Shown here piece by piece: positions 20,642 through 24,960 of a stretch of DNA of 64,000 nucleotides. The stretch covers positions 54,814 to 118,813 of the forward strand of contig JAUYOL010000036.1 of assembly GCA_030695905.1 (NCBI GenBank). Direction: 5' to 3'. Source of the stretch: Candidatus Omnitrophota bacterium. GTDB lineage: Bacteria; Omnitrophota; Gorgyraeia; 2-01-FULL-45-10. Position numbers and translations under genes: made by a program. How positions within the stretch are numbered: position 1 is the stretch's first letter; each line of letters opens with the position of its first letter. Under the pieces are notes generated by a model. That model was not told where the DNA came from, searched no databases, and saw nothing but the letters and a program-made list of their open reading frames with translations.

Positions 20642-22134
20642 TTTGTAAAATATTTATCCTGATAAATCTTCTTAAGCATATTGAACATGCGGTTGCCCTC
20701 ATCGTCAAACTTTTCAGCTCTCTTTATCTGCTGCCAATATTCCTTCGGCATGCGGGCATATAAAGCAAACGTCCTTTGCAGTCCCCTTACCTCTTCTTTG
20801 GATAATTGAGGCATATCCAATGACACGTCTACGTTGATAGAGCCGGGGGTAAAACCCTCAGATATAAAGCCCTTTTCAACACAAAGTTTATACAAGGGTG
20901 TGCCGTGAAAAGGGGCGAAAGTAGCGGCATTTACAGTATCAAAAACAAGCTGACGGTTCAATCCAATAGTATCAAAAATCAGCTCCCGGGTTTCACCGGG
21001 GAATCCTATTATATTATTAACCGTTAAGGGTATTCCGACGTCGGCTATTATCTTCGATGCCTTTATCATCTTATCATTATCGAATCTTTTCTTTAGCACC
21101 TTCTTCCGAAACTCATCATTGCCGTGCTCGAGCCCCATGGACATGCGGTGGCACCCCACCTCTTTAAGTTTTTTTATCTTGTATTTAGTAATCACCTCGA
21201 CTCGTGACTGCATCCAAAAAGGCAGTTTTATATCCGCATAAAAATCGATAAATTCTTCAAACTCATCATCGGTAAGAGTTAAAAAAGTATCGGAAGCAAA
21301 ATAAACATATTCAGCATTCCATTTCTTTACCAAATACTGCACTTCTTCCTTGATCTTCTTCATGGATTTTTTCCTGAAAAATACTCCGGCATCACTGTCA
21401 CGATACAGCTGTGAAGTCGACGGAGAATTACAAAAAGTGCAGGAATACGGACATCCCCTGTTAGTTTCTATCGGTATTGTCAAATATACCTTGCCTGCCA
21501 TGGGGCGGAAAAATCTCTGCTTCTCAAATAAGTCGTAATCGGGAATTGGCAGCCCGTTCAGATCTATGGGCTTTTTTAATTTATTGACTATTATCCTGCC
21601 GTCTTTTTTGATGACCAGGTTCTCTACGCCAAAACAATCTTTGCCTTCCGACAAACGCTTGCACACCTCAATCAGGGCGTCTTCTCCTTCACCGCGGCAT
21701 ACCATGCTAATATTTTTGTTTGACAGGATAATTTCCGGCGCAAAAGTAGCGAATACCCCGCCGGCAAGAACAGGGATATCAAATCTTTCAATGGCTTTTA
21801 TCATGCGAAGAGCGATCGGATATGTGCATTCCAGGATAGAAATGGTAATCAGGTCCGGCTTAAAATCCTGCACTTTTTTGACAAGATCGTCTTCAAAGAG
21901 CCCTTCATTAAGCCTTACGTCTCTTTCTCCATAATCAAAAGGACGGACCTGAAGATTTTCCTGCTTGGCATCATCCGATCCCCTCTCTTTTTTGTCGGCA
22001 TAAAAAGTAGTATCAAACAAGTCCGCTTCAAAACCATTTTGCTTGAGTAAAGCTGTAAATATGCCGATAGAGATCGGCGGCGGATTTAAAAGTTTACCGT
22101 TGGGATATAAAAGCAAAGCTTTAAAAGGTTTCAT
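20638..22134 (-). CDS. Cobalamin (B12)-binding radical SAM enzyme (class B)
   Basis: ALLLYPN...PDLITISIL B12-binding domain. IETNRGCPYSCTFCNS radical-SAM motif. 498 aa. Confidence 0.8.
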   Translation of the reverse strand: MKPFKALLLYPNGKLLNPPPISIGIFTALLKQNGFEADLFDTTFYADKKERGSDDAKQENLQVRPFDYGERDVRLNEGLFEDDLVKKVQDFKPDLITISILECTYPIALRMIKAIERFDIPVLAGGVFATFAPEIILSNKNISMVCRGEGEDALIEVCKRLSEGKDCFGVENLVIKKDGRIIVNKLKKPIDLNGLPIPDYDLFEKQRFFRPMAGKVYLTIPIETNRGCPYSCTFCNSPSTSQLYRDSDAGVFFRKKSMKKIKEEVQYLVKKWNAEYVYFASDTFLTLTDDEFEEFIDFYADIKLPFWMQSRVEVITKYKIKKLKEVGCHRMSMGLEHGNDEFRKKVLKKRFDNDKMIKASKIIADVGIPLTVNNIIGFPGETRELIFDTIGLNRQLVFDTVNAATFAPFHGTPLYKLCVEKGFISEGFTPGSINVDVSLDMPQLSKEEVRGLQRTFALYARMPKEYWQQIKRAEKFDDEGNRMFNMLKKIYQDKYFTK

Positions 22135-22951
22135 ATTTTAAGTTGGTTTTACCCAGCATGCCGTATTTCTCCGGCATCAGGACGTTAAAAGGTATATGTA
22201 TTATATCTATAACCGGATCGACCGACCTTACAAACTCGTGTATTTGGGCCAGATTACCGGGAGTATCAGTGACTTTTGGAATCAGGGGCACCCTTACGGA
22301 TACATGTTTCTTTGCCTCATGCAAACGCCTAAAATTATCCAAAATACATCCGTTTGACCTGCCTGTATATTTTTCATGAAGCTCGGGATCGATAAATTTC
22401 AGATCAAACAGGAAAAGATCGACAAAAGGCAAAATTTTCATGAAGGCTTCGGGCTCGGAATAACCGCTGGTATCCAAGGCCACGTTTATTCCGTTTTTCT
22501 CCGCAAGACTTGCCAATTCACAGGAAAAGTCTATCTGAAACAGCGGTTCGCCCCCGGAAATCGTTACCCCTCCTCCGGACATCTCATAATAACTTTTATC
22601 GCTAAGCGCCTGATGAATAATCTCCTCGGCTGGCAATTCCATGCCTGACCATAAAAGCGCTTTCAAACTGCAATTATTGACACACAAACCGCAACGATCG
22701 CAATCATCGCTTTTAAAAACAATCTTATCCTGCCAGTCAAAACATTTTTTCGAACAAAGCTCCACGCATCTGCGGCACCCTGCGCAACGCTCGCGCAAAA
22801 ACAAGACCTCGGAAAACCGCGGGATATTTTCCGGATTATGGCACCAGACACAATTAAGGGGGCAGCCTTTTAAAAAAATCGTGGTACGGATGCCCGGCCC
22901 GTCATGCAGGGAAAACTTTTGTACCCTGGTAATAAAACCTTTTGCGCTCAT
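22121..22951 (-). CDS. Glycyl-radical-enzyme activating enzyme (PflA family) with two ferredoxin-like 4Fe-4S motifs
   Basis: [26 protein letters not shown] (classic GRE-AE CxxxCxxC). Two additional clusters, [15 protein letters not shown] and [12 protein letters not shown]. 4-nt overlap with the upstream GRE gene. Confidence 0.85.
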   Translation of the reverse strand: [276 protein letters not shown]

Positions 22952-24960
22952 TGCGCCCTCGCTATCACATGGTCCTGCATTTCTTTGCTTAACAAGACAA
23001 AGTAGTAAGAAAAACCCCAGACGCGGACGATAAGGTCTTTGTATCTATCGGGATGCTTTTGCGCGTCTAAAAGCTTTTGTTTATCCAAAATATTAATATT
23101 TAAAACACACCCCCCTTTTTGGCAAAACACTTTAACCAGAGATATCAGGATGCTCTCAGGATGCTCGATCTCTTTGAAAACCGTAAGCGGCAGATTTAAA
23201 TGTAAAGTCGACCCAAATACCTGTTCACTTAAATTTAATTTACAAACGGAATTTATCACAGCGGTCGGACCTTTAAGAGCCGTACCGGGAGTAGGTGATA
23301 TATGCTCCCCCACCAAAGAGCCGAATTCGCGACCGTCAGGCGTTGCGCCGACGCTATACGCCGTATGATTGAATAAATGATTATAAAGCCCCGGCAAGAT
23401 TGGCCGTCCCGTGCGATCCTTATGCTCCTGCACCCATAAAGCGAATTTTCCGGCGATATCAACTGCCAGTTTATCCACGAAATCGTCATCATTACCGAAC
23501 TTAGGGGCGCCCTTGCAAAGACCCTGCAAAACGCGATAATCCTGAAAATTATTACGCAGGGCCGAAAGAAGGTCTTCCCGGCAAATATTCTTTTTGTCAT
23601 AGATTAAATATTTGACCGCCGCTAAGCTATTTACGGCCGTACCCAATGAACCTATGAAAAGCCCGTAAGTGTGATAACAGGACGGGTTTCTATATGGTTC
23701 CGTGGCATTTTCCAGAACATCAGGCATTGTTGCGGCGGTGAATAAACGCATGGGGTAAGCATCGCTGTTATAAGGGTCTTTAAGCATGACCCTTATCTGA
23801 TATTTTATCTGTTTTAAATAAGCCTCATAGAATTCATCGAAGCTTTCCATTTTTAAAAAATCGCCTGTGCTCAGCCCTTTTCTAATAGGCGATCCTACAT
23901 CAATTGAATCCTGCATCGAAGAATAATACTGCATCTTCTTTTTATCGGGAATATTCTCCGCACCATTAAACAGAACATGTTCGACGGCTTTAACGCAATC
24001 TATGTAACGAAACCAGGTCTCTCCGCACCCGTCGAGGATTATTTCAGAACAGCCGTCGTTACAATAGTTATAAGCGATTTTCTCAGGACGGCCGCATAGC
24101 TTTAATCCCTTAATAATAAAGTCGTCGTTAAATACGGTACATATGCCCCTGCCGGTAAGCTGCAGGCGAGCAACAAGTTCCAGCAGTCTCGGCGTACTAT
24201 TCTTGTGTAAACGAACATTAATTTTTGGCTCGATGTATTTGTTGATGATCATGGATTCCAGAATGATGTAGCTGATGTCATTAGTCTGGTCGTTGCCATC
24301 TGCATCCTGCCCTGAAAGCATAATATTCTGTAAGGTGTCGCCTACCCCCGATCCGCGTTTTTCAAAACGAAACAAAAGTTCATCCACGATCTTTTTTGCT
24401 TCGTGGCAGGTAAGGATATTTCTTCCGACGTCATTCTTATAAAAATGGAAAAGATGCTGATCTGTGCGCCCGACAGTAGAAGTTCCTATCCGGAAGATCA
24501 CGGCAAACCAGTAAAGCTGACATGCCTCGAGGAACGTCTGTGGGGCCCTTTCAGTCAAAGCAACACAAGTCTTATGGATTTCTTTTAACCCGAGTTTTTG
24601 CGCAGCCAAAGAGAATTTTTTCACGATCTCGATCACGGCCGAATAAACCTGTGCTATAAGCAACAGGTATTCCTTCTCATTGCCATTGAATTTTTGGGCA
24701 TTGTCTAAAGCCTCTTTTTTAATTCCGGCAAATCCCAGAGAAAGAAGCCTGCGCATGCCCAGCGGGTAATGAAAGTTATCATGGTTGCGCGGCCAGACCG
24801 GATAAGGGGGAGAAACAAATGGACCGGCCAGATAAGAATCTGGGCCGACGTCTATCCCGATCTTATTAAGCCAGTCGAGATACATCTCATTATCCTTTTT
24901 AATAGTTTGGATGACAGTATTTGTTATAGGCATAATATTCCGATTACTAATTAAGCACAA
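22948..24960 (-). CDS. Glycyl radical enzyme, short (670 aa) PFL-like family member of unknown specificity
   Basis: C-terminal HPDRYKDLIVRVWGFSYYFVLLSKEMQDHVIARAQ aligns with the PFL glycine-radical domain ([32 protein letters not shown]); Gly is retained in RVWGF. ATPDGREFGSLVGEHISPTPG matches PFL NTPDGRRAGAPFGPGANP. Candidate Cys loop NDGCSEI. A cognate activase lies immediately downstream. Confidence 0.75.
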   Translation of the reverse strand: MCLISNRNIMPITNTVIQTIKKDNEMYLDWLNKIGIDVGPDSYLAGPFVSPPYPVWPRNHDNFHYPLGMRRLLSLGFAGIKKEALDNAQKFNGNEKEYLLLIAQVYSAVIEIVKKFSLAAQKLGLKEIHKTCVALTERAPQTFLEACQLYWFAVIFRIGTSTVGRTDQHLFHFYKNDVGRNILTCHEAKKIVDELLFRFEKRGSGVGDTLQNIMLSGQDADGNDQTNDISYIILESMIINKYIEPKINVRLHKNSTPRLLELVARLQLTGRGICTVFNDDFIIKGLKLCGRPEKIAYNYCNDGCSEIILDGCGETWFRYIDCVKAVEHVLFNGAENIPDKKKMQYYSSMQDSIDVGSPIRKGLSTGDFLKMESFDEFYEAYLKQIKYQIRVMLKDPYNSDAYPMRLFTAATMPDVLENATEPYRNPSCYHTYGLFIGSLGTAVNSLAAVKYLIYDKKNICREDLLSALRNNFQDYRVLQGLCKGAPKFGNDDDFVDKLAVDIAGKFALWVQEHKDRTGRPILPGLYNHLFNHTAYSVGATPDGREFGSLVGEHISPTPGTALKGPTAVINSVCKLNLSEQVFGSTLHLNLPLTVFKEIEHPESILISLVKVFCQKGGCVLNINILDKQKLLDAQKHPDRYKDLIVRVWGFSYYFVLLSKEMQDHVIARAQ

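Follow-up and report, generated by a model that had tools for sequence, protein, structure and literature searches.

The locus described here raises the question of what a glycyl radical enzyme (GRE) is doing in the middle of a gene cluster for glycan biosynthesis. The GRE gene and the gene of its activating enzyme lie in a stretch of 64,000 nucleotides from a Candidatus Omnitrophota genome (GenBank assembly GCA_030695905.1, contig JAUYOL010000036.1, positions 54,814 to 118,813; hereafter the window), in which 56 of the 59 open reading frames (ORFs) longer than 150 amino acids are on the minus strand. We found that the pair belongs to a recurrent cassette with genes for a pyruvate aldolase, a CMP-ulosonate synthetase of the KdsB type, a short-chain dehydrogenase (SDR) and several further sugar-modifying enzymes, and this cassette appears to supply a surface glycan with a Kdo-like sugar acid, a 3-deoxy-2-ulosonic acid in CMP-activated form. 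That the GRE acts in such an ulosonate and glycan pathway is, in our judgment, highly likely. For its chemistry we prefer the reading, to which we assign a probability of roughly 0.45 to 0.5, that the GRE dehydrates a diol of the sugar acid and that the SDR reduces the ketone so formed, the net result being a deoxygenation.

The original prediction, made from the DNA letters, described a protein of 670 amino acids that resembles pyruvate formate-lyase (PFL) and ends in a glycyl radical domain. The ORF at 22948-24960 does encode 670 residues if a TTG start is used. However, the 100% identical database protein MDP3791528.1, which comes from a Candidatus Omnitrophota metagenome-assembled genome (MAG), on a contig of 252,627 bp, and is annotated as 'pyruvate formate lyase family protein', starts at the ATG at 24933, nine codons after the TTG, as do all homologs. 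The GRE therefore most likely has 661 residues, and the longer figure holds for the ORF and probably not for the protein. The assignment itself was borne out. Pfam recognized PFL-like (PF02901, the ten-stranded barrel domain; E = 1.6e-75, profile positions 162-639 of 647) and, at the C-terminus, Gly_radical (PF01228; E = 8.1e-20), and the C-terminal sequence (...DLIVRVWGFSYYFVLLSKEMQDHVIARAQ, up to the stop codon) aligned residue for residue with those of glycerol dehydratase (GD), HypD and HpyG. The protein also carries the motifs GATPDGREFG...SPTPG and YCNDGCSE. It is shorter than the PFL2-type GREs, as had been noted, with 661 residues against 776-850 in those of solved structure, and the missing part is N-terminal. 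The possibility that the short length reflects a truncated gene was considered and rejected, because all members of the family have 634-703 residues, their N-termini are conserved, and the structural model described below is confident from residue 1.

The adjoining activase had been predicted together with its 4-nt overlap, and both were seen: the ATG of the activase gene overlaps the stop codon of the GRE gene (ATGA), and the product scored 297.7 bits against NCBIfam TIGR02494 (GRE activating protein; cut-off, 174.35). Its sequence contains a CX3CX2C motif and two Cys-rich ferredoxin-like clusters. On the NrdG2 model, it reached only 67 bits, the cut-off being 131. The activase adjoins the GRE in every locus of the close family, and we have next to no doubt that the two genes encode a genuine GRE and activase pair.

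Conservation around the catalytic residues was assessed at two depths. Among 23 close relatives (51-92% pairwise identity), the segments Y290-C-x-D-G-C295-x-E297 and R637-V-W-G640-F-S were invariant, as was C295-S/T-E297 in the Cys loop of the family. In 50 sequences reaching down to 27% identity, C295, E297, R637 and G640 were still invariant, and H55 was conserved in at least 90%. The active-site Cys, whose conservation the original prediction had left to be checked, is therefore C295, situated within a Cys-x-Glu motif. This motif also occurs in GRE decarboxylases, and is necessary, not sufficient, for the assignment of an eliminase. When the family profile was compared with the sequences in the PDB, GD was the best match (E = 4.6e-91), followed by HypD, HpyG, CutC and 1,2-propanediol dehydratase (PD); YbiW matched at E = 2e-76. 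In the profile alignment, C295 and E297 fall on C433 and E435 of GD, G640 falls on the radical glycine, and P57 is paired with S166 of GD, so that the conserved H55 comes to lie at GD His164, the residue proposed to protonate the leaving hydroxyl group (PMC13450708). A Cys-x-Glu motif with a substrate-bound Glu is regarded as the hallmark of GRE eliminases and isomerases (PMC13450708). C-C cleavage of the PFL type, which had been offered beside deoxygenation or dehydration, was accordingly judged unlikely and dropped, as the Cys loop reads G-C-S-E and not the CC of formate lyases; deoxygenation was retained as a candidate activity.

An AlphaFold2 model of the GRE, built on 50 sequences (pLDDT, 94.1; pTM, 0.93), was matched by Foldseek with a probability of 1.00 to more than 50 GRE structures. 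The best of these was the B12-independent GD (1r8w; E = 6.9e-46, TM 0.86), followed by PD (TM 0.85), CutC, HypD and HpyG, with YbiW and PflD lower in the ranking. The family has a set of invariant polar residues of its own, R49, H51, R193, R309, Y310, D312, H319, R396, H421, Y517-N518-H519 and H578, several of which lie on or beside predicted barrel strands. This set would fit a polyhydroxylated anionic substrate.

The position of the protein within the superfamily was examined by an exhaustive search of 1.84 billion representatives clustered at 50% identity. One full-length representative was found at 63% identity and 1000 bits, and the next stood at 40% identity and 449 bits; because of this drop, the close family can be taken, as judged by sequence, to be one discrete clade. 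The best NCBIfam equivalog was HypD, at 267 bits against a cut-off of 1100, while HpsG gave 247 (cut-off, 1000) and CutC 210 bits (cut-off, 1050). The best single-sequence match in the PDB was 8ID1 (E = 2e-69), from the HypD/HpyG hydroxyproline dehydratases. The replacement of RVSGY by RVWGF, to which attention had been drawn as a non-canonical feature, is present and invariant in the close family. It does not set the family apart, however, since RVWG[FY], like the short N-terminus, is common to a much wider clade of short uncharacterized GREs from SAR202, Poribacteria, Latescibacterota and Bathyarchaeota, in which it is the majority form.

The next-nearest GREs, at 35-40% identity, lie in carbohydrate-catabolic loci that do not contain the cassette. 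Their neighbors include DeoC, FGGY kinase, iron-dependent alcohol dehydrogenase (Fe-ADH), polysaccharide lyase, SASA esterases, GH127 and sulfatase, which is consistent with a sugar-type class of substrate. Three such loci (L040, L041 and L042) encode GREs of about 685-700 residues with RVWG[FY] and no adjacent activase, in arrangements such as Fe-ADH/DeoC/FGGY kinase/GRE/polysaccharide lyase and SASA/sulfatase/GRE/Gfo; they probably represent an uncharacterized catabolic group that acts on sugars. At about 30% identity to the window protein stands a large clade of short GREs (L011-L038), from SAR202/Dehalococcoidia, Poribacteria, Latescibacterota and Planctomycetota MAGs, which keeps YC[AN]DGC[ST]E and has an activase nearby in 12 of 28 loci, usually on the opposite strand. 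The cassette was not found around the GRE genes of this tier, and a tblastn search of plasmids with the GRE gave no match above 30% identity.

GRE homologs were found to recur in the same context, as the original prediction had proposed to check, at 12 independent loci (the window, L001-3, L004, L005, L007-L010, L043-L045 and L046/47), further loci having been retrieved by exact-protein contig look-ups. The GREs of the eleven other loci are 58-66% identical to the window protein, and those from seven of the 12 are 54-68% identical to one another. The named hosts belong to at least three phyla, namely Omnitrophota, Bacteroidota (Mariniphaga) and Desulfobacterota (Desulfonema and Smithellaceae). 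Every locus long enough to judge encodes the HpcH/HpaI-family aldolase, KdsB, the SDR, the GRE, the activase, a Gfo/Idh/MocA oxidoreductase (Gfo), a SIS isomerase and a D-2-hydroxyacid dehydrogenase (2HADH) in the same order, with the sole exception of L005, in which the GRE and activase pair lies three genes beyond the rest of the cassette. A phosphatase of the IMPase type comes next in 8 of the 12 loci, including the window; in L046/47 no such gene was seen, and the sequences of L008 and L043 stop short of its position. The SDR is present in every GRE-bearing locus that reaches the SDR position, the L008 contig beginning 231 nt upstream of the GRE. In L044, nine cassette genes are contiguous. 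Identities across the loci are 59-77% for KdsB, 49-61% for the SIS isomerase and 45-51% for the IMPase. Glycan clusters surround the cassette at all 12 loci, with reading frames that mostly overlap or abut, and the neighborhood survey of these loci found no close-family GRE outside the cassette.

Related cassettes lacking the GRE were also obtained. A search with the aldolase, which gave more than 4000 matches at E ≤ 1e-30, yielded L048, which encodes HpcH, 3HCDH, KdsB, Gfo, SIS, 2HADH and a HAD phosphatase, and a further cassette, L049, encodes HpcH, KdsB, Gfo, SIS, 2HADH and a HAD phosphatase. The assembly GCA_004196255.1 holds both this six-gene cassette and the nine-gene, GRE-bearing L043. 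A tblastn search of plasmids with the aldolase added L050, on plasmid NZ_CP094833.1 of Acuticoccus sp. I52.16.1 (40686-43847), with genes for the aldolase, a CMP-transferase, a PGDH-like dehydrogenase and a HAD phosphatase. The host of L050 is a cultured marine alphaproteobacterium, in which the four-gene set lies beside nucleotide-sugar dehydrogenases. All three cassettes have the HAD phosphatase in place of the IMPase, and Gfo is kept in L048 and L049 as in the GRE-bearing loci. Because the SDR, the GRE and the activase are jointly absent from all three, their genes act like a single unit inserted between KdsB and Gfo. The aldolase is kept in all cassettes with or without the GRE, at 60-61% identity in the GRE-less and 60-73% in the GRE-bearing ones, and in a neighbor-joining tree without support values the GRE-less aldolases nest among the GRE-bearing ones. 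This nesting faintly suggests that the same aldol step takes place with and without the GRE. The six-gene and nine-gene cassettes, which in one case share a genome, make the function of the module directly testable, and in Acuticoccus, which is tractable, the base sugar acid could be identified.

The SDR scored 297 bits on NF005390 against a cut-off of 369, fell below the KduD cut-off of TIGR01832 as well (Table 1), and is 53-55% identical to proteins named KduD; by these scores it is a close KduD paralog and not a member of KduD. On a 2-keto-3-deoxy sugar acid, KduD converts a 5-keto group to a 5-hydroxy group and back. In the pathway that we propose, the GmhA-like isomerase would supply an aldose phosphate, which the aldolase would join with pyruvate to give a 2-keto-3-deoxy acid; the phosphatase would strip the phosphate from this acid, and KdsB would then make the CMP-sugar. 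The Gfo and PGDH-like dehydrogenases would tune the oxidation state or the stereochemistry. For the radical step, the activase would generate a radical on G640 that then moves to C295, and the C295 thiyl radical would take a hydrogen atom from a carbinol carbon of the sugar acid. E297 would deprotonate the hydroxyl group of that carbon, the adjacent hydroxyl would depart as water, aided by H55, and C295 would give the hydrogen back to leave a keto-deoxy intermediate. The SDR would reduce the new ketone with NAD(P)H, so that one hydroxyl group would be lost under anoxia. The leaving group and the order of the steps are those that homology would suggest. In the extended version found in the window, B12-radical SAM (S-adenosylmethionine) enzymes and methyltransferases would further decorate the sugar.

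Put together, these steps would make the enzyme the first PFL-like GRE with an anabolic role, a radical sugar deoxygenase in a pyruvate-aldolase pathway to CMP-activated dideoxy ulosonic acids, which in some clusters would also be C-methylated by B12-radical SAM enzymes and which anaerobes of several phyla would use in surface glycans; we give this whole picture an even chance. In its boldest version, the GRE would act on the CMP-linked sugar and would be a nucleotide-sugar counterpart of class III ribonucleotide reductase (RNR). The presence of a GRE means that the pathway works under anoxia, and an anaerobic lifestyle is in keeping with it and with the several B12-radical SAM genes. The stronger claim of the original prediction, that the host is strictly anaerobic, goes further than a GRE by itself can prove.

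Several observations weigh against net deoxygenation by the GRE and the SDR. The GRE lies below every curated cut-off, including that of TIGR01774 for the PFL2/GD family (276.5 against 678.2 bits), and about 110 N-terminal residues of GD are unmatched in it in the profile alignment. The dimer interface conserved in other GREs is formed by helices preceding the barrel, and in those GREs the region unmatched here includes such helices, some of which may be lost in the window GRE. Asp447 of GD falls in an alignment gap or at the variable position 307; HypD, presumably, likewise does without the Asp447 of GD and PD. In L005, seven genes separate the SDR from the GRE and activase pair, and the comparison with GRE-less cassettes covers three of them. 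The reductase partner could be the Gfo or the PGDH-like enzyme and not the SDR, and the substrate, which we place by genomic context, may be the free acid, a phosphate ester or a CMP-linked form. Finally, a Cys-x-Glu motif with a His does not tell a dehydratase apart from a C-N or C-S lyase or a ring-opening isomerase.

This last point leads to a reading in which the GRE is not a dehydratase, and instead performs a ring-opening C-O cleavage or redox-neutral isomerization, as YbiW and PflD do, or a β-elimination of a phosphate ester or an amino group. The precedent is close at hand, since YbiW and PflD are PFL2-type GREs with a CxE motif that act on sugar phosphates and break C-O bonds of the ring (PMC13450708), and the match of YbiW to the family profile, the non-conservation of the Asp447 equivalent, and a substrate pool that is phosphorylated, given the isomerase and the phosphatase, all point the same way. 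On the other hand, GD, PD, HypD and CutC rank above YbiW and PflD in both sequence and fold, the conserved core contains no aminotransferase, and a ketone product that needs the KduD-like reductase fits an elimination as well or better. We therefore regard this reading as unlikely, and take a similar, somewhat more sceptical view of another, that the GRE works upstream of the aldolase, dehydrating a small diol or polyol (glycerol, 1,2-propanediol or a polyol phosphate) to an aldehyde acceptor for it. Aldehydes are natural acceptors of class II pyruvate aldolases, the aldolase shares an operon with the GRE, and glycerol and propanediol dehydratases head the fold comparison. Against these points, the base cassette occurs without the GRE and with an equally similar aldolase, the GRE-less aldolases nest among the GRE-bearing ones, the co-varying KduD-like keto-acid reductase is left with no role, and the invariant family-specific Arg, His, Tyr and Asn residues would suggest a large polar anionic substrate.

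A more radical doubt is whether the adjacency means anything, the GRE and activase being a catabolic or central-metabolic pair that happens to lie in a glycan island, or an inactive relic. The PFL-like GREs characterized so far are indeed all catabolic (PMC13450708), and the nearest outgroup homologs are found in catabolic sugar loci. Yet the same neighbors, with mostly overlapping or abutting frames, accompany the gene at 12 independent loci in at least three phyla, no close-family member was found in another context, the Gly, Cys and Glu needed for catalysis never vary, and next to the gene there is always one for a dedicated activase. By virtue of this neighborhood survey and these invariant residues, incidental adjacency and a relic are effectively excluded. 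Taken together, we retain the dehydration of a sugar-acid diol followed by reduction of the ketone as the preferred reading.

The genes of the cassette and of its surroundings in the window are listed in Table 1.

Table 1. Features of the GRE cassette and adjoining genes (window coordinates).
Feature	Position	Strand	Basis
Glycyl radical enzyme, 661 aa	22948..24933	-	Pfam, invariant catalytic columns, AlphaFold2 model, fold match
GRE-activating radical SAM enzyme, 276 aa	22121..22951	-	TIGR02494, Cys motifs
KduD-like short-chain dehydrogenase (SDR)	24951..25724	-	TIGR01832 KduD 302.7 bits, cut-off 338.85
KdsB-type CMP-ulosonate synthetase (cytidylyltransferase)	25721..26485	-	Passes curated KdsB cut-offs
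HpcH/HpaI-family class II pyruvate aldolase	26476..27237	-	Pfam HpcH_HpaI E 4.9e-34
Gfo/Idh/MocA oxidoreductase, core cassette	19571..20641	-	Pfam
GmhA-like SIS sugar-phosphate isomerase, core cassette	15652..16263	-	SIS_2 E 1.6e-18
PGDH-like D-2-hydroxyacid dehydrogenase (2HADH), core cassette	14721..15644	-	2-Hacid_dh_C E 6.7e-46
IMPase/FBPase-family phosphatase, core cassette	13909..14721	-	Inositol_P E 1.1e-49
B12-binding radical SAM enzyme, variable extended module	20638..22134	-	Pfam B12-binding + Radical_SAM
Methyltransf_23 SAM methyltransferase, variable module	18567..19592	-	Pfam
Second B12-binding radical SAM enzyme, variable module	17032..18561	-	Pfam
FkbM-family methyltransferase, variable, window only among loci	16279..17007	-	Pfam
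Weakly Glyphos_transf-like protein, directly upstream of aldolase	27240..28520	-	Pfam E 1.8e-4, just under cut-off
Polysaccharide flippase (Polysacc_synt_3)	28510..29991	-	Pfam

The SDR, KdsB and aldolase genes upstream of the GRE, and the B12-radical SAM, Gfo and methyltransferase genes downstream, are those that had been read from the sequence originally, with the proviso that the Methyltransf_23 protein may act on C or on O. KdsB exceeded the cut-offs of NF009905 (270.3 against 255 bits), NF003952 (258.9 against 193) and, marginally, TIGR00466 (156.1 against 155.2). The aldolase lies below all equivalog cut-offs (HpaI, 180 against 369 bits), as do the SIS isomerase on gmhA TIGR00441 (115.9 bits; cut-off, 209) and the PGDH-like enzyme on PGDH TIGR01327 (202 bits; cut-off, 454). 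The window cassette contains no homolog of KdsA, KdsD or KdsC, their places being taken by the HpcH aldolase, the GmhA-like SIS isomerase and the IMPase. An attempt to decide between a Kdo-like (C8) base sugar, a DAH/Dha-like one (C7) and a C10 one derived from a heptose phosphate was abandoned, since the GmhA-like, PGDH-like and Gfo proteins are all below curated cut-offs.

The B12-radical SAM and Methyltransf_23 genes form a variable module found only in the window, L004, L007 and L043. Orthologs of the B12-radical SAM enzyme next to the activase (69-79% identity) and of Methyltransf_23 are confined to L004, L007 and L043, and those of the second B12-radical SAM enzyme to L004 and L043. Two sequence types of Gfo were observed, one 71-73% identical to the window protein and found only together with the B12-radical SAM and Methyltransf_23 genes, and the other 40-48% identical; this tracking hints that Gfo acts after methylation. 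The Glyphos_transf-like protein is a candidate CMP-sugar transferase, and proteins like it border the cassette in L045, L048 and L049 as well; a flippase adjoins the cassette in L001, L004, L043 and L044.

Outside the cassette, the window consists of a glycan island more than 60 kb long, which includes the flippase and numerous GT-A, GT-B and GT-C transferases, as well as additional B12-radical SAM genes. In all, four genes for B12-binding radical SAM enzymes were seen on the minus strand (9592-11076, 17032-18561, 20638-22134 and 54710-56044), along with a radical SAM fragment (63198-63920), a richness that suggests that sugars are widely C-methylated, or otherwise tailored by radical chemistry, under anaerobic conditions. 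A second, conventional gene set, for a nonulosonic acid, lies immediately upstream of the GRE cassette (31831-41275, minus strand) and comprises PseB-like and PseC-like proteins, an aldo-keto reductase, an SDR, the second CMP-transferase of the window, an AP_endonuc_2-GNAT fusion, NeuB, and HisH/HisF/WbuX amidotransferases; in L045, unlike the window, AP_endonuc_2 and GNAT are separate genes. An RtcB RNA ligase (530 aa) and a thymidylate-kinase-like protein are encoded as part of the glycan operon at 6345-8568 (minus strand), between glycosyltransferases and an LPG_synthase_TM protein. A gene for a NodU/CmcH-type carbamoyltransferase (57805-59399, minus strand) is broken: a 79-aa ORF for the N-terminus (59160-59399) is followed by a short stretch in another frame and then by an ORF of 386 aa whose match to Carbam_trans_N begins only at profile position 190. 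The break reflects a frameshift, decay to a pseudogene or an error in the assembly. A search of the window with Rfam revealed no RNA element.

If the GRE is fixed in a sugar-nucleotide pathway, as its recurrence suggests, the superfamily would extend to glycan biosynthesis, and an anaerobic route to deoxy sugars would be gained. Known routes to deoxy sugars employ SDR 4,6-dehydratases, pyridoxal or pyridoxamine phosphate-dependent enzymes, or radical SAM enzymes, and the proposed GRE route would be distinct from these. An ulosonic-acid pathway built on a class II pyruvate aldolase, and not on a phosphoenolpyruvate (PEP)-dependent synthase, is apparently undescribed, and the resulting sugars could mark the surface glycans of uncultured anaerobes such as Omnitrophota, syntrophs and sulfate reducers. 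A review of the GRE superfamily of June 2026 distinguishes formate lyases, decarboxylases, X-succinate synthases, eliminases, isomerases and class III RNR, and describes the functionally characterized PFL-like members as all catabolic; the words polysaccharide, glycan, CMP, capsule and 'biosynthetic' do not occur in it (PMC13450708). A full-text literature search, whose coverage leaves out most subscription journals, likewise found nothing that links GREs or the aldolase/KdsB cassette to glycan synthesis. The catalytic platform is known, as is its likely chemistry; what appears to be new is the subfamily, together with its anabolic role and the pathway around it.

Among known systems, GD (DhaB1, 1R8W) and PD (5I2G, 9RCO) share with the window GRE the Cys-x-Glu motif, the equivalent of His164, the glycyl radical domain, and an adjacent activase with two ferredoxin clusters. 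They differ in that identity is only 25%, that RVAGY stands there for RVWGF here, that the N-terminal portion and the Asp447 equivalent are not matched, and that they serve diol fermentation, whereas the window GRE lies in a glycan context without microcompartment genes. HypD and HpyG have the CxE motif and provide the top single-sequence PDB match and the top equivalog, although at less than the curated score and with no proline-metabolism genes near the window GRE. YbiW and PflD, isomerases of 1,5-anhydrohexitol 6-phosphates, are of the PFL2 type with CxE and set a precedent for carbohydrate substrates, but they are catabolic ('anhydroglycolysis'), have about 810 residues, and are remoter than GD in sequence and fold.

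Class III RNR (NrdD/NrdG) is the one established anabolic GRE, and the hydroxyl group that it takes from its sugar stands beside a carbinol. It offers a looser parallel to the proposed deoxygenation, but is a member of the RNR-like branch, whereas the window GRE is PFL-like. In apramycin biosynthesis, the radical SAM diol dehydratase AprD4 and its NADPH-dependent reductase AprD3 carry out C3-deoxygenation. The two steps proposed for the GRE and the SDR would follow the same logic by analogy, namely radical diol dehydration to a ketone and its subsequent reduction, whereas AprD4 is a radical SAM protein and its substrate is an aminoglycoside pseudodisaccharide. For the cassette as a whole, the nearest model is the Kdo pathway (KdsD-KdsA-KdsC-KdsB), with which it shares an isomerase, the condensation of a C3 unit with an aldose phosphate, a phosphatase and CMP activation. 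The Kdo pathway uses the PEP-dependent KdsA together with KdsD and KdsC, whereas the cassette has an HpcH-type aldolase, a GmhA-like isomerase, and an IMPase or a generic HAD phosphatase, and adds to these three extra oxidoreductases and the GRE.

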